A DNA stretch of 64,000 nucleotides from contig JAWXAY010000033.1 of assembly GCA_034439715.1 (NCBI GenBank), positions 15,647-79,646 on the forward strand, given 5' to 3'. This stretch comes from Pseudomonadota bacterium (GTDB lineage Bacteria > Bdellovibrionota > Bdellovibrionia > Bdellovibrionales > SG-bin7). Under the pieces are notes generated by a model. That model was not told the DNA's origin, ran no database searches, and saw only the letters and a program-made list of their open reading frames with translations. Shown here piece by piece: positions 25,068 to 33,010 of the stretch. How positions within the stretch are numbered: position 1 is the stretch's first letter; every line of letters starts with the position of its first letter. Both the position numbers and the translations under genes were made by a program.

Positions 25068-25697
25068 TTGCTCAACACCATGCCACTTGAAAAGCTTTTT
25101 CCGACTTACGTATACAACGAAAAATTGAAATCAAATGACTTAAATTTGCGAGGCGAGATTTTATCGGAGGCCTATAAGTTTAGGGATGACGACATAGAAG
25201 GCCATAAATGGTGCAAAAAAAACTATGTCGGTGGTTACACCTCATATGGTTCGCTCTGTAAACTTCATAAAATGTCGCCCACCTTTAACGAACTAAAAAA
25301 ACAAATTGATAAACATGTCAAAAAATATATCCAAGTTACTGAAATGGATCTTGAAGGCCACAAAATAGAAATGAACAGCTGCTGGGTTAGTATTATGCCT
25401 GCGCAGAGCCATCATAGCTTTCATATTCATCCACAGTCTTTTATTAGTGGCACCTACTATGTTTCAACTCCAAAAAATTCTTCGGTGATTAAGTTTGAAG
25501 ATCCTAGGCTTGCATTTTTTATGGGTTCACCATCCCGAAAATCAAAATGTCGGCGTGAAAATCAGCACTTCGTGGCTGTTGACCCTCGGGAGGGCAACGT
25601 GGTGCTTTTTGAAAGTTGGTTGAGGCACGAAGTACCCGCGAATACTAGCGAAACAGAACGGGTTAGCGTTAGTTTTAACTACAGTTGGAATTTCTAA
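25068..25697 (+). CDS. TIGR02466-family putative 2OG-Fe(II) oxygenase
   Basis: LFPT N-terminus, HSFHIHPQSFISGTYYV, FEDPR, LFESWLRHEV, RVSVSFN. Confidence 0.88.
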   Translation: MLNTMPLEKLFPTYVYNEKLKSNDLNLRGEILSEAYKFRDDDIEGHKWCKKNYVGGYTSYGSLCKLHKMSPTFNELKKQIDKHVKKYIQVTEMDLEGHKIEMNSCWVSIMPAQSHHSFHIHPQSFISGTYYVSTPKNSSVIKFEDPRLAFFMGSPSRKSKCRRENQHFVAVDPREGNVVLFESWLRHEVPANTSETERVSVSFNYSWNF

Positions 25698-26681
25698 TTA
25701 AACCAACACTCCATTTACTAAATCTTCTTCGTGCAGTCGCATAAGGTCTTTGGCGATGGGGCCAGGCCTTCCGTCTCCTAAAGCCTTACCATTTATTTGA
25801 ACGACCGGTAAAACTCCAATAGTTGTACCAAACATCATGGCCTCTTTACATTTCTCAGCTTGCTCGAGGGTGATGTCGCCTTCCTTGATGGCCTTGAGCT
25901 TGCCGGCATTTAGTAATTTCCAGGCGAGTTCCATCAGTCGCACCAGAGTGGTGCCCTTCAAAGTATATTTAAATGACGGAATTAAAAGTTCAGAGTCAAT
26001 TGTGACAAAGCCAATATTTTCAGTGGCGCCTTCGCCTAAAAATCCTCTTGGTGAAATATTAATCGAGAAGTCCCAGCCTTTATCTTCGGCCTCTTTCTTC
26101 ATAAGAACATTACTCAGATAGTTACAACTTTTAACAGTCGCCTGAAAGGAATCTTTCATAGGAATTTGACTTGCGCCGACTATCACTCCGTTCAGATATT
26201 TTGCGGGTTCCACGGGTTTGAGTCGTGTCACCACAATGTAGAGTTGCGGGGCTACGCTTTCGTAGGGCGATGGGCCAAATCCACCGGGCCCACGTGAAAC
26301 AAATACACGTAATCCATAATTACATTCTTTAGCGCGCTCTTTTGTACTTTCTTTGGCTACTCTTACCGTTTCAATTATTGTCCCTTGTAGTTCCAGACGA
26401 GAAAGTGGAAGCTTAAGCGCTACCTTTTCAGCGCTAGACTCAAGCCGATCCAGATGCTCTTTCAGAAGATAAATACGCCCTGCACTAACCTTTAAGGCCT
26501 CAAATATTCCATCCCCCCGGTGTACGAGATGATCATCGACTGGTACGCACATTAACATTGGGTCGGATGTAATTCCTCCAAGCCAAGAAGAATACATAGC
26601 AAAATAATTTTCATGAAAAATTTGCCTTTGTTGATCGAGTTTTTTTAAAAAGAAATCTCGTGTAATTATCTCTATGCTCAT
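25698..26681 (-). CDS. Class IV PLP aminotransferase (IlvE/PabC-like)
   Basis: DDHLVHRGDGIFEAL, HLDRLESSA, VKSCNYL (PLP Lys), EGATEN, LKGTT. Confidence 0.9.
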   Translation of the reverse strand: MSIEIITRDFFLKKLDQQRQIFHENYFAMYSSWLGGITSDPMLMCVPVDDHLVHRGDGIFEALKVSAGRIYLLKEHLDRLESSAEKVALKLPLSRLELQGTIIETVRVAKESTKERAKECNYGLRVFVSRGPGGFGPSPYESVAPQLYIVVTRLKPVEPAKYLNGVIVGASQIPMKDSFQATVKSCNYLSNVLMKKEAEDKGWDFSINISPRGFLGEGATENIGFVTIDSELLIPSFKYTLKGTTLVRLMELAWKLLNAGKLKAIKEGDITLEQAEKCKEAMMFGTTIGVLPVVQINGKALGDGRPGPIAKDLMRLHEEDLVNGVLV

Positions 26682-26772
26682 TTTTTCCTCATAATGCGAT
26701 GCTATTTATGTGACCTTTAGTAGAATGATAATTAAAAAGCTTTCTGTACACAACAAACAAATGGGAGTGAGT

Positions 26773-27177
26773 ATGCGACAAATATTAGGGGTAATTGCTT
26801 CGGTATTGTTGGCCACTAGTGGAGCTTCAGCAAGTCACAACAAACATGTAGGAGAGCCGATGGTTCTTGTTGCCAAAAACCTTATTGCTGAAGGTCAAGT
26901 AGTCATTGATGTGCGCCAAGAAGCCTGTGACGGCTATGTGAAAGGGGCTCACATCATCTCTATCGATGATTTCTCTGCTGCCACTGATGTCACAATGGCT
27001 AAAATTTTAAAATTGGTAAACGACGATAAAACCAAGTCTGTCGCAGTTTACTGTAAATCGGGAGTGCGTTCTAAAAAAGTTATGGGCATTTTAAAAGCTC
27101 AGGGATTTTCCAACTTGCATAACTTGGGTGGCGTGGGCGAATACTACGATCCTTCGACCATGCAGAAATGCGATTAA
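26773..27177 (+). CDS. Exported rhodanese-domain protein (start moved from 26710 to 26773)
   Basis: GGAG RBS, signal peptide MRQILGVIASVLLATSGASA; IDVR, YCKSGVRS active-site loop, HNLGG. Confidence 0.85.
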   Translation: MRQILGVIASVLLATSGASASHNKHVGEPMVLVAKNLIAEGQVVIDVRQEACDGYVKGAHIISIDDFSAATDVTMAKILKLVNDDKTKSVAVYCKSGVRSKKVMGILKAQGFSNLHNLGGVGEYYDPSTMQKCD

Positions 27178-28434
27178 TTAGGCTGCTTTTTTTATATTTG
27201 AGTTTAAATATGAGTTGCTAGAGGTCATGGTGGAGTTCAAATGGTTTTTAGCAACATAGGCCCGATAATTGTCTTGAACTTCATTTTTAATATGAAGCGA
27301 TTCTATGTTCTTCTTTTTTAAATTCTTTAATTGTGAATCGCTGACCTTGCAGCCACCTCTAAGATATTTTAAAAACTTTTGGTTGGAATGCAGATAGAGG
27401 TAGGCATCGAATTCGATTCTGGTTTCAGATGTGAGATTGTCGATTTTAATTTCAGACATGGTGGGATCAGGAGACGGGATAACCCGAATCATTGATTTTT
27501 CCATTTCAAAAAAAGCCATCATGACTTCTTTGCCCTTATGATTCCCGCGAGTGACATATTTAGCCTTATGACTGGTCCACGCCTTAAAATCTACCTCATC
27601 GACTTCTAGGTGAAGAGTTTTTGTTGAGAGACCATTGAATTGCACGTAAGAGCCCATGTCTCCCATTTTAGTTCTTAGGTTTTCTACCAACGCCGCGTCG
27701 ACTTCTTCGCGCCCGGCCATGACCATGACAAGGAGGCCCGAGACCGAGTCACTGGTAATTGGAATGACTGTCAATTTTTGGGTGTTGGTAATTGGCACGT
27801 GTTTTTCAATGGCGGCTTCACAAGCATTCTGAAAGGTTTTGCCAAGGTCTTGAAAAAGTACCTGTTCATTTTCCGTGTAGTTTCGGTTTTCGCTAAGCGA
27901 AATTTGACTCTGCTCCAGTAGCTTGGCATTTACATTTTTTTCGGCATTCTGGTCAATTTCAAATTTATGCGAAGTCACAACCATCGAAGTCTGATCGGGG
28001 CCTGTCAACTTTGCATTTACGCTGATGTTTTGTTTGACGTCCGTGTGTTCAGACTGAAGTTTAGAAAAAATCGTATGCCCGCTGATCGGAGGCATAATGC
28101 TCTCGCCCTGATGACTCCTTAGTCTGCGGATGGTTGTGTTGTCGGTGGTTTCTCCAAAGGCGACTACTGGCAGTTTTAATTTATTTTGTAAAGAGGCAGG
28201 ATAATTAACGACCTCATTATTTTCTCCGGTAAAGCTTACAAAAATGAAACGCGGGGGAAAAGCGCTGCAATATATTAGTAAATCACCAAAAGAGGAAAAA
28301 ACTTTGACTGTCCAGCCTCGTCTTTCAAGAAACCAAACTGTAGAAGATAGTGTGCGTGGATCTTCGGCGAAGAAAACCACATGAAATGATCCGATAGAAT
28401 TTAGCATCTCAAATCCAGGCTTTTGTTCTGACAC
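27178..28434 (-). CDS. Hypothetical signalling protein: degenerate receiver-like N-terminus and HD-GYP-associated-like C-terminal domain without an HD domain
   Basis: VFFAEDPRTLSSTVWFLERRGWTVKVFSS receiver-like start; FDAYLYLHSNQKFLKY...QLKNLKKKNIESLHI C-terminal segment. Confidence 0.55.
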   Translation of the reverse strand: MSEQKPGFEMLNSIGSFHVVFFAEDPRTLSSTVWFLERRGWTVKVFSSFGDLLIYCSAFPPRFIFVSFTGENNEVVNYPASLQNKLKLPVVAFGETTDNTTIRRLRSHQGESIMPPISGHTIFSKLQSEHTDVKQNISVNAKLTGPDQTSMVVTSHKFEIDQNAEKNVNAKLLEQSQISLSENRNYTENEQVLFQDLGKTFQNACEAAIEKHVPITNTQKLTVIPITSDSVSGLLVMVMAGREEVDAALVENLRTKMGDMGSYVQFNGLSTKTLHLEVDEVDFKAWTSHKAKYVTRGNHKGKEVMMAFFEMEKSMIRVIPSPDPTMSEIKIDNLTSETRIEFDAYLYLHSNQKFLKYLRGGCKVSDSQLKNLKKKNIESLHIKNEVQDNYRAYVAKNHLNSTMTSSNSYLNSNIKKAA

Positions 28435-28454
28435 CTGGCGTACCTCTTAGTCAC

Positions 28455-28481
28455 TTTTCGGCTTATTCTGTATAAAGTTTA
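28455..28481 (-). promoter_or_regulatory. FliA/sigma28-like promoter
   Basis: TAAA-N15-GCCGAAAA with canonical spacing, upstream of the 28434 start. Confidence 0.6.
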
Positions 28482-28540
28482 GGACTTTAGTCTTGCGGCT
28501 AGGCGCTACAGTTTATTTAAAAAGCACTGCGCTTGCATTC

Positions 28541-29260
28541 TCATTTTGAAGCGCGAACGGCAAATGTAGATTCCCTTTTTGAGCCAAAACCGGGTTTTTC
28601 AATTAGAGAAAAACCACTTTGAGATAGGGCTTTTTTCAACGAGCCATTTGAGGCATATGTTGCAAAAGAGCATGGTGTCCCCGCCATAGACTTTAAAAAG
28701 TTAACCAGCCATTCCTGTTGCCACAGCTCAGGGTTAGCCGACTTGCTATAGGGGTCAAATTGGATGACATGGTATTCTCCCAAATCGTTATAGGATAGAT
28801 CTAGCAAAGGGTCGGCAAAAAAAATCCAGTTATTTTGTTGATAGAGCTTAAGGGCAAAGTTCTTAAGAACTGAGCTCTGAACATTTAAGTGGGTCTCAAT
28901 ATGGGACAAGATTTCGTCGTAGGTTTTTGCAAACTCATTTGGTTTCGGGTCATTAACTAACCAACTTAAAAAAGAACTTTTTAGCTGGGTTGACTTTTCA
29001 AAAGACAAGAGTGCCACGCTCTCATTGCGACGAGCGGATTTTAATATCATTGCCAAGGAAATTAACTCGATATAACCAAGCCCGAGGCCCATAACACACA
29101 TTTTTAGCGGGTAGTTACGCTCAATGGCCAACTCCATATTTTTGCCATAAATATAGAGGGTCTCCGAAAAAGCTCCTTCGCGTGCATGCATCGTTTGCCC
29201 CGAAATCGGGTCATTAAGAGAAGTGCTGCCATCATTGGTCCTGACTAACGGATTAGACAT
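28541..29260 (-). CDS. Stand-alone MnmC methyltransferase domain (MnmD-like)
   Basis: TNDGSTSL, MHAREGAFSETLYIY, LGLGLG, DPYSKSANPELW, FATYAS, GFGSKRE; no FAD oxidase domain. Confidence 0.82.
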   Translation of the reverse strand: MSNPLVRTNDGSTSLNDPISGQTMHAREGAFSETLYIYGKNMELAIERNYPLKMCVMGLGLGYIELISLAMILKSARRNESVALLSFEKSTQLKSSFLSWLVNDPKPNEFAKTYDEILSHIETHLNVQSSVLKNFALKLYQQNNWIFFADPLLDLSYNDLGEYHVIQFDPYSKSANPELWQQEWLVNFLKSMAGTPCSFATYASNGSLKKALSQSGFSLIEKPGFGSKRESTFAVRASK

Positions 29261-29313
29261 GTTTAATGGTATTACTCCATTGACTCTCCTATGAAAACCT
29301 TTATTTAAAAGAG

Positions 29314-30282
29314 ATGATTCCCTATTTTTCTATTGGACAGTATTACCGCGCTAAGTTTGGCGAAAAAATGTATAAATTGCCTGTGAGCATTGTGGATACC
29401 TGCCCCAATCGCGAAGGTCTAAAGGGAATGAAACAGTGTATTTTTTGTGATGAGTGGGGTTCGTTTGCTTATCAAGATACCATGACCAGATCATTGGCAT
29501 TTCAAATAGAAAATCATCGCGAAAAGTTAAGCAAAAAACATGGAAACAGTAAATTCTTGGTCTACTTTCAGGCCTACACATCAACTTTTGCCAAGATTAG
29601 TTATCTGAGAGAGTGTTTTGACGAAGTCCTTAAGTATGATTTTGTTAAAGGTATAATTATTGGAACCCGCCCGGACTGTATCTCAAAGTCACTTATCGAA
29701 ATGTGGCACGAGTATTCTCTAAAAACCTATTTGGCTGTGGAGTTTGGCGTCCAGAGTTTTTTTGATGAAAGACTTAAGTGGCTTGAGCGCGGGCATCCGG
29801 CTCTAAGTATTTATAGGGCCATTGAAAACATCCGAAAAGTTTCAGATTTTGATCTAGGTGTGCATTTGATGTTTGGTTTACCAGGCGAGAGTTTAGCCGA
29901 AATTATTGAGAGCGCAAAAATTATAAATCGTCTTCCCATTAACAGTGTCAAACTTCATAACCTACACGTATTAAAGAGCACACCATTGGAACAGTTATAT
30001 TTAAAGGGTGAGTTTAAGCCCATTGAGCTTGAGGAATACACTTTAAAGGTCGCCGAGTTTTTGAGATATTTATCCCCGAGCGTGGCTGTTCATCGCCTAA
30101 GTGCTGTGGCTAGTCGCTGGGATGAATTGCTGGCGCCCGAGTGGACCAAGTATCATTTAAAAACTTATCAGCATATTGTTGAGTTCATGAATCGAGAAGG
30201 CTTTCAGCAAGGACAGAAATATCATCTGAACTCACGCGAATCTCATTTGAAACCTTTTGTGCTTCCGGTGCAATCTTTATAA
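29314..30282 (+). CDS. TIGR01212-family radical SAM protein
   Basis: TCPNREG...CIFC cluster motif, YFQAYTST, IGTRPDC, EFGVQS, RGH, KLHNLHVLK. Confidence 0.93.
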   Translation: MIPYFSIGQYYRAKFGEKMYKLPVSIVDTCPNREGLKGMKQCIFCDEWGSFAYQDTMTRSLAFQIENHREKLSKKHGNSKFLVYFQAYTSTFAKISYLRECFDEVLKYDFVKGIIIGTRPDCISKSLIEMWHEYSLKTYLAVEFGVQSFFDERLKWLERGHPALSIYRAIENIRKVSDFDLGVHLMFGLPGESLAEIIESAKIINRLPINSVKLHNLHVLKSTPLEQLYLKGEFKPIELEEYTLKVAEFLRYLSPSVAVHRLSAVASRWDELLAPEWTKYHLKTYQHIVEFMNREGFQQGQKYHLNSRESHLKPFVLPVQSL

Positions 30283-31243
30283 GTTCTCCGCGCCGGTACT
30301 CTGGCGGGGTGCCATCTCTTTTTAGCCAAGATAAAAATTCGCGATCAGGACTTCGGCAAACCATTTGTCTAAATTTACCCTTCTCGTTTTTTTGATCTCC
30401 AGTGAGTCTTGCAAACTGTGATATTGTATTTGGTGGAGGACTGCGGCTGGCCGCTAAAAAACTGTAGGTCAGAGTTTTATTTTTTATGGGCAAATGTTTT
30501 TCAAGGTCGCCAAACCATTTAGGTTGTTGCCAGAATACTCGGTGGTGACACCAATCGCTTTTCGTCGGCAAAAGGGGACAATCTTTCAAATGTGTGCAGG
30601 GCGCCCACAGATGAAACTTATTAAGGCGTAAGGTTTCACGCGTCGACAGTAAATTTCTACCGTTTATTCGATCTGAGGGCTCAACGATAAGTACATTATT
30701 AAATTTTTCCCAACCGTCTGGCAAGTGGCCAAGCTCTAGGAGTGCATAAGAAAGTATGAGTAACTTTTTTTCGGGATGTGAAACCTCACTTAATTTTAAA
30801 TCACTATGCCACGTCAGCTCAGCTGCCGGTAGTTCTGTTGCTTCTTTGGGGTAAAGCGATTGGAAGAGTGCGGGCGCATGTTTATAGCGCTCAATGCAAA
30901 TACCCGAGCTTAAATCAATTAAGCTGTCGTTCAGAGCGCACGGAAAGGTCCCAGGCCCACTTCCAAAATCTACAAAGGATTTAATGTCCTTAAAAAAACC
31001 CACTCGGTTTGCTTCGTAGATTGCTGAACAAGCGCGAATATAATTAAGCGGAAAAAAATAGGCAATATAAGCTGCAAGGGCAGCCGGTTGCTCCCACGGA
31101 GTGATTCCCACTCTGTGAATATAGTGGTCTGATAGAGCTAAAATCGCATTTGCCAACTGCTTTGGCTTGGCAAAAGTGAAACCCTGTTTATTTAATAGGA
31201 CCTCAAGACGATTATAGTAGTGTTCGGGAAATGAAAATTCCAT
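30185..31243 (-). CDS. Rsm22-like SAM-dependent methyltransferase
   Basis: AYIAYFFPLNY, DFGSGPG, IVEPS, APCTHLKDCPL, DWCH, FSFLA; 98-nt convergent overlap with the radical SAM gene. Confidence 0.8.
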   Translation of the reverse strand: MEFSFPEHYYNRLEVLLNKQGFTFAKPKQLANAILALSDHYIHRVGITPWEQPAALAAYIAYFFPLNYIRACSAIYEANRVGFFKDIKSFVDFGSGPGTFPCALNDSLIDLSSGICIERYKHAPALFQSLYPKEATELPAAELTWHSDLKLSEVSHPEKKLLILSYALLELGHLPDGWEKFNNVLIVEPSDRINGRNLLSTRETLRLNKFHLWAPCTHLKDCPLLPTKSDWCHHRVFWQQPKWFGDLEKHLPIKNKTLTYSFLAASRSPPPNTISQFARLTGDQKNEKGKFRQMVCRSPDREFLSWLKRDGTPPEYRRGELIKIAPEAQKVSNEIRVSSDDISVLAESLLDS

Positions 31244-31324
31244 GACTTATTATAGGCCTACCATATAGAATGCCACCATATAGAATTTTGGTAAGATTGC
31301 AATAGCAGAAGCAGAGGAGAAATT

Positions 31325-32170
31325 ATGTGGGGAATCATTGGCGGCACTGGCTTTGAAAAAATCGAGGGTTTTGAGATTATAGAGGATTTAAGTCCGGAGA
31401 CTCCTTTTGGACCGGCGTCCTCTTATTTTAAACGCGTGCGTATTGGCGGAACTGAGTGCCTTTATCTCTCTCGTCACGGAACCCATCATGAACAATTGCC
31501 CTCAGAAGTAAATTATCAGGCCAATATTTTTGCCTTAAAAAGATGGGGAGCCTCGCGAGTTCTAGCTTTTTCGGCAGTCGGAAGCCTTGAGGCAGCCTGT
31601 AAGCCAGGTGATATGGCGATAATTTCTCAGTATATTGACCGCACCAAAGGTGTACGTAAACACACTTATTGTGGCGAGGGGATTGTGGGCCATGTATCGC
31701 TCGCGTACCCTACTTGCTCCGCTTGGATGAAAGCCATTCAAGATTTAAAGAGCGAGTTTGATTTCCCTATCCATTTTGACAAAACATATTTGTGTATCGA
31801 AGGGCCTTACTTTTCTACTTTTGCCGAAAGTGTAAGTTACCAAAAAATGGGGGCGCATATTATTGGCATGACTCAGGTGCCTGAGATGAGTCTCGCACGC
31901 GAGGCGGGGCTTTGTTATTTGTCTTGCTGTTTTGTAACTGATTTTGACTGTTGGGATACTTCGATTGAACATGTTACTCAGCAAGAAATTATGCGCATCT
32001 TAAAACAGAATGCCAGTCGTGGTTTTTCTATTCTTGAAAGATTAGCTAGAACTACTGACGAGGATATTGATGACTGTAAATGTTCCGCCCAGGGATTAAA
32101 AAATGGCTTGATGTCGCCTTTGTCGTCGCTCACTGATTCCCAGAAAAAATGGATGTCTGTAATTTACTAA
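31325..32170 (+). CDS. mtnP: S-methyl-5'-thioadenosine phosphorylase
   Basis: GIIGGTG, TPFG, LSRHG, VNYQANI, SAVGSL, IEGPYFST, IGMT, TDFDCW. Confidence 0.9.
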   Translation: MWGIIGGTGFEKIEGFEIIEDLSPETPFGPASSYFKRVRIGGTECLYLSRHGTHHEQLPSEVNYQANIFALKRWGASRVLAFSAVGSLEAACKPGDMAIISQYIDRTKGVRKHTYCGEGIVGHVSLAYPTCSAWMKAIQDLKSEFDFPIHFDKTYLCIEGPYFSTFAESVSYQKMGAHIIGMTQVPEMSLAREAGLCYLSCCFVTDFDCWDTSIEHVTQQEIMRILKQNASRGFSILERLARTTDEDIDDCKCSAQGLKNGLMSPLSSLTDSQKKWMSVIY

Positions 32171-32434
32171 ATTTTTTGAGACTAGTCGGGGCCTTTTTTT
32201 CAGGTACTTTTCGTGGGCTTTGAACTGTGGTGCAATGTCCGCGCTCTTTCGACTAAAACCTAGACGCCACACTCCTCACTCTTCTCGTAAACGCATTACG
32301 ACTCAACTAATCGTCGTAGCATTTTGGCGTATCTTCGTCCTTCGGGCATCGCAGTTTTTACGCCAAATATTTAATACATTTAGATTTTGCTATCGTAGAT
32401 ATTTGACTGGCCTGTTCAAGTTCTAAATGCAACG

Positions 32435-32974
32435 ATGAAATCAAAACAATTGTCATTTTTCAAAAAACTAACACTTGAGCATGGTGGGACTTTGGGAAAG
32501 GGTAAACGCAAGGGTGCGAGACCGATCTCGACGAAACACCCCATTCACCTTGTTTATCGGGCTTCTAAAGCTAGAGCGAAGCTCTCTCTTCTAAATTTCT
32601 CTCGACGAATAGACAAAATTCTTTCTCAACAGGCTCAAAAGTTTGGCGTTTCGATTTACGAAAAGGCTAACTCTGGTAACCACCTTCACCTCTTAATTAG
32701 AGGTAAAAAGCGAGTGGGAATTCAAAAATTTTATATTTCTACGACAGCGCTTATAGCACGCCTCGTGACAGGTACAAAAAAAGGTAATAAGTTTGGGAAA
32801 TTCTGGGATCACTTAATATTTTCTAGGGTGCTCACCTCCTGGAGTCGTGAATTTTTGGATTTGAAGGATTACCTTGTACAAAACACACTAGAGACTTTAG
32901 GCCTTGTGCCCTTTAGGGCACGGCTGCGGCACGGAGCGCGGCATACGAACTTGGCGAGATCAAATTCAAGTTAA
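32435..32974 (+). mobile_element. HUH/Y1 tyrosine transposase (IS200-like or RAYT-like)
   Basis: IHLVYRA, NHLHLL (HUH), FW...FSR, DYLVQN (catalytic Tyr); hairpins on both sides. Confidence 0.8.
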
Positions 32975-33010
32975 TTAAGTTTTGGCCCATAGAACCATAA
33001 AATTGATGAT

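Follow-up and report, generated by a model that had tools for sequence, protein, structure and literature searches.

We analyzed a 64,000-nucleotide stretch (the window) of contig JAWXAY010000033.1 from an uncultured Bdellovibrionales genome and found in it a divergent gene pair that we read, with a probability of about 0.8, as a module of two genes for the final two steps of the synthesis of 5-methylaminomethyl-(2-thio)uridine, mnm5(s2)U34, at the wobble position of tRNA. On the minus strand, an mnmC2-like gene (28541..29260) encodes a stand-alone S-adenosylmethionine (SAM, or AdoMet)-dependent methyltransferase of 239 amino acids. On the basis of PF05430, NF033855, its fold and its key residues, this product is the predicted methylase that converts the 5-aminomethyl form, nm5(s2)U34, to mnm5(s2)U34. 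On the plus strand, the mnmL gene of the ytqA/yhcC family (29314..30282) encodes a radical SAM enzyme of 322 amino acids, assigned by TIGR01212, PF04055 and PF16199, which is predicted to be the demodifying enzyme that converts the 5-carboxymethylaminomethyl form, cmnm5(s2)U34, to nm5(s2)U34. The two ATG codons are separated by a divergent AT-rich spacer of 53 bp (29261..29313; read from the sequence). Correct reading of split-box codons, those for Glu, Lys and Gln among them, is maintained by mnm5s2U at the wobble position. If the reading is right, the locus would be a clean natural example in which the MnmC1 oxidase domain has been replaced by MnmL, whereas the MnmC2-type methylase has been retained.

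In the proposed mechanism, MnmE-MnmG and MnmA, whose genes lie at other sites of the genome, would build cmnm5s2U34. MnmL would then strip the carboxymethyl group in an O2-independent reaction to yield nm5s2U34, substituting for the flavin adenine dinucleotide (FAD) oxidase domain MnmC1, and the MnmC2-type methyltransferase would use SAM to methylate the free amine to give mnm5s2U34. By analogy with MnmC1, MnmL probably abstracts a hydrogen from the glycyl moiety by means of the 5'-deoxyadenosyl radical, giving an imine that is subsequently hydrolyzed. The modified tRNAs would be those that read the NNA/NNG codons of split codon boxes, and the head-to-head layout over 53 bp presumably permits joint regulation of the two genes. 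The substrates and products in this scheme are inferred from in vitro and in vivo work on Escherichia coli YhcC, from the genetics of Bacillus subtilis and Streptococcus mutans MnmL, and from the biochemistry and structures of Aquifex and E. coli MnmC2. The gene identities, the conserved residues, the fold, the upstream pathway, the linkage and the co-loss described below were observed directly, as was the negative outcome of genome searches for MnmC1 and MnmM.

The identity of the radical SAM enzyme was supported by curated profiles and by its conserved residues. The 322-residue protein scored 272.7 bits (cut-off 180) against TIGR01212, the 'MnmL/YtqA' model (IPR005911), over model positions 2–301 of 302; NCBIfam already names this family 'tRNA modification radical SAM protein MnmL/YtqA'. 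The protein also exceeded the cut-offs of PF04055 (radical SAM core) and PF16199 (Radical_SAM_C). Over 286 amino acids it shared 33% identity with E. coli YhcC (E=7e-59), and its identity to relatives in the order was about 50%. The cysteines C30, C42 and C45 (Cx11Cx2C; CPNRxGLKGMxxCxFC) were invariant in nine Bdellovibrionales sequences and E. coli YhcC. In YhcC, the cleft proposed to receive the tRNA contains two conserved basic residues, K21 and R279 (bioRxiv 10.64898/2026.05.18.725915). K18 of the window protein aligns with K21 and is invariant, and R279 aligns with H281 in the window protein and with Lys in most relatives, so that this position is basic but not identical.

The original prediction had described the partner as an MnmC methyltransferase domain without the oxidase domain that shares a 53-bp spacer with a TIGR01212 radical SAM gene. 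This description held in full: the open reading frame (ORF) coordinates and the spacer were exactly as claimed, the 239-residue protein matched PF05430 (54.3 bits, cut-off 22), and an FAD/DAO domain, the oxidase part of bifunctional MnmC (NF002480/NF002481, TIGR03197), was absent. The protein was about 35–47% identical to relatives in the order. A profile built from the window protein and 12 relatives retrieved Aquifex aeolicus MnmC2 (PDB 3VYW) with E=1.2e-21, followed by the MnmC structures. Residues D169, N176, E178, E88, K89 and Y202 align with D193, N200, E202, E133, K134 and Y225 of the Aquifex enzyme, whose residue roles, including the catalytic Asp, the AdoMet contacts and the motif VI Tyr, are described in PMC3527978. 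The catalytic motif IV Asp (D169, in DPY; the counterpart of E. coli D178 and Aquifex D193, with DxF as the reference motif) and the stacking motif VI Tyr (Y202) were invariant in 13 sequences. Furthermore, the distance from the Asp to the Trp was 11 residues, identical to that in Aquifex; the adenine-holding Asn and Glu (N176 and E178) were kept with identical spacing to the Trp, and the motif II Glu-Lys pair (E88 and K89) was also kept.

The predicted fold agreed with this assignment. The AlphaFold model of the methyltransferase had a predicted local distance difference test score (pLDDT) of 92.6 and a predicted template modeling score (pTM) of 0.91. In a Foldseek search against the PDB, ranks 1–9 were occupied solely by MnmC2 or MnmC structures (3VYW, 3AWI, 2QY6, 3SGL, 3PVC and 3PS9, including the E. 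coli and Yersinia MnmC proteins) with E values from 4e-11 to 2e-08. The top match was 3VYW (E=4e-11, template modeling score 0.70), and the next matches were generic class I methyltransferases at E values of 3e-06 or weaker.

The rest of the pathway was then surveyed in the genome (3.26 Mb, 111 contigs, 95.7% complete; the window lies on contig C33). The genes for MnmE (C65:18720-20051) and MnmG (C65:20087-21928) are adjacent, and MnmA is encoded on C2; all three proteins were above the curated cut-offs. The check that the original prediction had asked for, for a full mnmC or an mnmM elsewhere, was in its favour. No MnmC1 above the cut-off was found in the genome, where the best TIGR03197 matches reached 57–63 bits against a cut-off of 174. 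MnmM (YtqB, PF06962) was not found at E<=0.01, and the B. subtilis and Lactococcus lactis controls matched. The best MnmC1-like match was a 569-residue DAO protein in the C50:8389-9129 region (L009:976-2685, minus strand). This protein matched sarcosine/N-methyltryptophan and pipecolate oxidases as well or better and has an unexplained N-terminal extension of about 145 amino acids; it was rejected as a stand-alone MnmC1 and regarded as a generic sarcosine/N-methyltryptophan-oxidase-like protein. Two other DAO-family proteins were also rejected as MnmC1: the one on C80 is an L-2-hydroxyglutarate oxidase above its own cut-off, and the one on C72 is a DAO-Rieske fusion.

The expected substrate tRNAs are present. 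ARAGORN found single genes for tRNA-Glu-UUC, Lys-UUU, Gln-UUG, Arg-UCU, Gly-UCC and Leu-UAA, and the C34 isoacceptors for Glu, Lys and Gln (anticodons CUC, CUU and CUG) were not among the 42 tRNAs found. The Glu, Lys and Gln tRNAs must therefore read both A- and G-ending codons, and decoding of GAG, AAG and CAG should rest on the modified wobble uridine. The modification should thus matter for this genome.

Conservation of the pairing was assessed at three levels, and at each of them the pairing proved to be conserved as predicted. Among 30 order-level relatives, both genes were present in 24 genomes and adjacent in 20 of these (19 divergent and one tandem); in two of the four exceptions the genes lie on different contigs. 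One relative (G013) has MnmL only. Among public loci, the best 80 for the MnmL protein (48–55% identity; Bdellovibrio, Pseudobdellovibrionaceae and 'Bdellovibrionales bacterium' assemblies) were compared. An MnmC2-like gene lies within 3 kb upstream of mnmL in 74 of them and within 400 bp in 70 (69 divergent and one tandem). Two of the six loci without such a gene end at a contig edge, leaving 78 informative loci, 70 of which are paired. The gap between the matched regions in the orthologous pairs was similarly short, mostly 34–160 bp; the divergent orthologous pairs include loci of B. bacteriovorus. One typical Bdellovibrionales pair (L079, CALQIT020000109.1) stands in a record labelled 'MAG: Streptomyces griseus', which is probably a binning or labelling error.

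The third level was a phylum sample of 121 genomes, each at least 90% complete. MnmL was present in 57 of the 121 genomes, and 47 of the 57 also have a sub-threshold MnmC2-like gene. A divergent adjacent pair was found in 35 of the 47: the order contributed 22 of 22, family f15 8 of 10, and a single genus of family f17 5 of 5. The divergent pair thus also occurs in two lineages outside the order, and the pairing is far beyond chance.

The two genes were also lost together. Five genomes of 1.6–2.2 Mb (G006, G010, G020, G021 and G029) match neither gene, and MnmG is kept in all five; the check was repeated with the NF033855 profile on four of them. These five genomes fall into three genera of three families, and the pair is retained by the sister genera, so that mnmL and the mnmC2-like gene were jointly lost at least three times. 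Furthermore, MnmL was found in none of the 25 phylum-sample genomes that have an MnmC2 or MnmC above the cut-off. Four of those 25 were tested, and in each of them MnmC1 was above its cut-off in the same ORF of 590–650 amino acids, which shows the true fused MnmC to exist in other families of the phylum. In families f14 and f18, MnmL occurs mostly without MnmC2. The phylum is thus a mosaic of published solutions in which MnmL and MnmC1 replace each other.

A maximum-likelihood tree was built from 50 PF05430 domains of the phylum and E. coli MnmC. The window protein falls within a 17-member clade (support 100/100), all of whose members are MnmL-adjacent except one, for which the two genes lie on separate contigs. 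The MnmL-adjacent proteins of f15 form a second clade (100/100). Long stems lead to both clades, in keeping with their low scores against NF033855. How the five MnmC2-like clades branch from one another is not resolved, so the tree does not give the number of origins of the linkage to mnmL. With regard to fused forms, the single-protein search found none; the profile search returned solely fusions of tRNA-guanine transglycosylase (TGT) with MnmC2 and one DAO fusion, and no MnmL fusion, a result weakened by the word filter and by a lower length limit of 544 amino acids.

Several observations weigh against the two-step module. The methyltransferase matched the NF033855 MnmC2 model along almost its whole length with 84.3 bits, short of the equivalog cut-off of 136 bits. 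Every MnmL-adjacent copy of the phylum sample scored about 50–98 bits, and by the equivalog rule their clade would be classed as a divergent relative of MnmC2 and not as an equivalog. Its motif I reads GLGLGYI, in which the final Asn of the reference (GX)GXGXN is replaced by Ile (some relatives keep the Asn), and motif IV is DPY instead of DxF. The clade of the window protein is long-branched, with a stem of 1.59 substitutions per site, and stands apart from the MnmC2-only and fused clades, a separation that may reflect shifted specificity. At 95.7% completeness, the genome may also contain an unassembled MnmC1 or MnmM. Bdellovibrio is aerobic. MnmL-only genomes mostly belong to anaerobes; yet the aerobic B. 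subtilis relies on MnmL. Furthermore, a stand-alone MnmC2 (105–143 bits) is present in 22 of 22 genomes of family f20, none of which has an MnmL match, so MnmC2 does not strictly need MnmL. This pattern agrees with Bacteriovorax and Halobacteriovorax in the tables of Jaroch et al. (bioRxiv 10.1101/2023.12.21.572861). The genome also encodes a further MnmC2-like paralogue, 276 amino acids long (C100:73149-73976; L002:1342-2172, minus strand), with an NF033855 score of 76 bits.

The f20 pattern speaks for an Aquifex-style shortcut, in which nm5s2U comes straight from MnmEG acting with ammonium and is then methylated by the MnmC2-type enzyme; MnmL would be employed elsewhere, and the adjacency would reflect only loose co-regulation of RNA-modification genes. 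This was the published model for MnmC2-only organisms (PMC3527978), and MnmC1 was not found in the sole f20 genome tested (G037; MnmC2 at C1:1701291-1701917). We consider it unlikely here: the adjacency is kept over a divergence so deep that the methylases share only about 35–47% identity, MnmG is retained in the genomes with the joint losses, and MnmL and fused MnmC are complementary within the phylum. In addition, the in vivo signal of an 'ammonium route' in E. coli was YhcC activity (bioRxiv 10.64898/2026.05.18.725915). It is about as improbable that the MnmL-linked methylases of Bdellovibrionota have evolved together with MnmL to form a dedicated complex or a hand-off pair, or have shifted their specificity towards a product other than plain mnm5s2U; if they had, wobble decoding in an aerobic predator would hang entirely on a radical SAM step that is sensitive to oxygen.

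The low profile score, the long stem and the replaced motif I Asn could instead mean that the divergent MnmC2-like enzyme has a different target, be it another amine or another position in tRNA or rRNA, on a substrate prepared by its radical SAM partner, and the PF05430 domains fused to TGT indicate that the fold has been reused around position 34. A different product of this kind seems very unlikely, since the AdoMet-binding residues, the catalytic Asp and the Tyr are kept (the Asn-to-Ile change in motif I excepted) and the closest structures are MnmC2 and MnmC only. The B. subtilis and E. coli members of TIGR01212, which belong to distant groups, both demodify cmnm5s2U, and no residues separate the groups. 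Other candidates for the mnm5s2U steps were not found in the genome by the TIGR03197 and PF06962 searches. The 276-residue paralogue on C100 might itself be the real nm5s2U methyltransferase, leaving another role to the window gene; the two proteins have similar NF033855 scores (84 and 76 bits), and family f22 has MnmL, with every f22 copy placed in the tree falling into the C100 paralogue clade. We regard this as highly unlikely, because the clade that tracks MnmL is that of the window gene. Clear orthologues of the C100 paralogue were found in only 2 of the 30 order-level relatives (four matches in total, two of them weak), and it is absent from the three same-family genomes and never adjoins mnmL; given this sporadic occurrence and lack of linkage, the window gene is the MnmL partner of the lineage. 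The paralogue gene adjoins, divergently, a gene for an RlmI-like 23S rRNA 5-methylcytosine methyltransferase, and its clade (100/99) includes PF05430 domains from open frames of about 670 amino acids, the size of TGT fusions. Its substrate may be the aminomethyl group of pre-queuosine 1 at position 34 (preQ1-34). The two-step module of MnmL and an MnmC2-type methylase is therefore the reading that we retain.

With regard to the layout of the locus, the spacer (29261..29313) presumably holds the promoters of both genes, and the consensus scan found no sigma-70 consensus match inside its 53 bp. A terminator-like hairpin with a T-run (30295..30313, plus strand; a pattern match only, from the consensus scan) begins 13 nt past the mnmL stop codon and sits within the coding 3' end of a converging gene; the number of terminator-like sites in the scan was not above that in shuffled sequence. 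No Rfam element was found across 26000-33000. The converging gene (30185-31243, minus strand) encodes an Rsm22-like methyltransferase of 352 amino acids (PF09243), and its coding region overlaps that of mnmL by 98 nt. A frameshift as the source of this overlap was rejected because the C-terminus aligns through the ends of the orthologues and because two relatives of the same family show such a convergent overlap too, of 4 and 56 nt.

At 1 kb downstream of mnmL there is a gene for a methylthioadenosine phosphorylase (MTAP; 31325-32170, plus strand). Enzymes of the MTAP family can clear 5'-deoxyadenosine, an inhibitory by-product of radical SAM enzymes. In 8 related loci the gene again sits no more than a few kb from mnmL. 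The link is loose. On the other side, downstream of the mnmC2-like gene at a distance of 106 nt and on the same strand, there is a 418-residue ORF (27178-28434, minus strand) that matched nothing in Pfam or NCBIfam. It is kept at the same position in two same-family relatives at about 42% identity, and its C-terminal half is similar to longer proteins of other Bdellovibrio loci. The flanks (25068-27177 and 32435-32974) encode a TIGR02466-family 2-oxoglutarate-Fe(II) oxygenase, a class IV aminotransferase, a single-domain rhodanese and a weak IS200-like Y1 transposase ORF, none with an evident link to the pair; a counterpart of the rhodanese was not found in the related loci examined.

The original prediction held that the radical SAM enzyme replaces the missing oxidase and pairs with an MnmC-type methylase as a mixed route. 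This idea is well supported by the searches in which MnmC1 and MnmM were not found, by the presence of MnmE, MnmG and MnmA, and by the linkage and co-loss of the two genes, but it is not new: the MnmL/MnmC2 route was predicted and then shown in the literature. What is new here is comparative support, namely the conservation of the divergent pair, its repeated joint loss in reduced genomes, and the complementarity between MnmL and cut-off-passing MnmC2 or MnmC within one phylum; the published picture is unchanged by it. For annotation, it is also of practical note that the partner methylase scores under the NCBIfam MnmC2 cut-off; labelling by cut-off would give it only a generic methyltransferase name.

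Compared with known systems, the window methylase is closest to Aquifex aeolicus MnmC2 (DUF752, 3VYW; PMC3527978), its best profile and structural match, which is a stand-alone nm5U methyltransferase and likewise lacks an oxidase domain. The two differ in that their identity is about 20%, the central segment of the window protein (about residues 92–158) is unaligned, motif I has Ile versus Asn, and motif IV is DPY versus DAF. B. subtilis MnmL (YtqA), whose function was shown genetically in that species and in S. mutans (bioRxiv 10.1101/2023.12.21.572861), belongs to the same radical SAM family, and its gene is also clustered with that of the next-acting methyltransferase, MnmM (YtqB). However, MnmM is of an unrelated family (PF06962) and the B. 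subtilis genes form an operon, whereas the window pair is divergent.

The E. coli system would be similar in its order of reactions. Boswinkle et al. (bioRxiv 10.64898/2026.05.18.725915) showed that YhcC is an MnmL, which turns cmnm5s2U-tRNA into nm5s2U-tRNA in vitro; when MnmC1 is inactive, the MnmC2 domain methylates this product, and the two work together anaerobically. The cysteine motif and the conserved Lys are shared with the window protein, and the window pair would share the succession of radical SAM demodification and MnmC2-type methylation. In contrast, MnmC1 is present in E. coli, where YhcC serves only in the absence of oxygen, yhcC and mnmC are unlinked, and MnmC2 is fused; in the window genome, where MnmC1 was not found, MnmL would be the sole route. 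A close precedent is that of Jaroch et al. (bioRxiv 10.1101/2023.12.21.572861; later J Bacteriol), who reported more than 70 YtqA/MnmC2 fusion proteins, suggesting that MnmL/MnmC2 converts cmnm5s2U. In their tables, B. bacteriovorus HD100 appears as 'MnmC2 only' (WP_011164438.1) and has a YtqA homologue (WP_011164437.1), and their Data S5 places Q6MLM1 ('MnmC-like methyltransferase, tRNA modification') next to Q6MLM2, the HD100 YtqA homologue; the main text does not discuss the Bdellovibrio pair. The two families, their proposed division of labour and the bacterial order are the same, and the HD100 genes are neighbours as they are here. The difference from the fusions is one of arrangement: there, both domains reside in one fused protein, whereas here they are encoded by separate, divergent genes.

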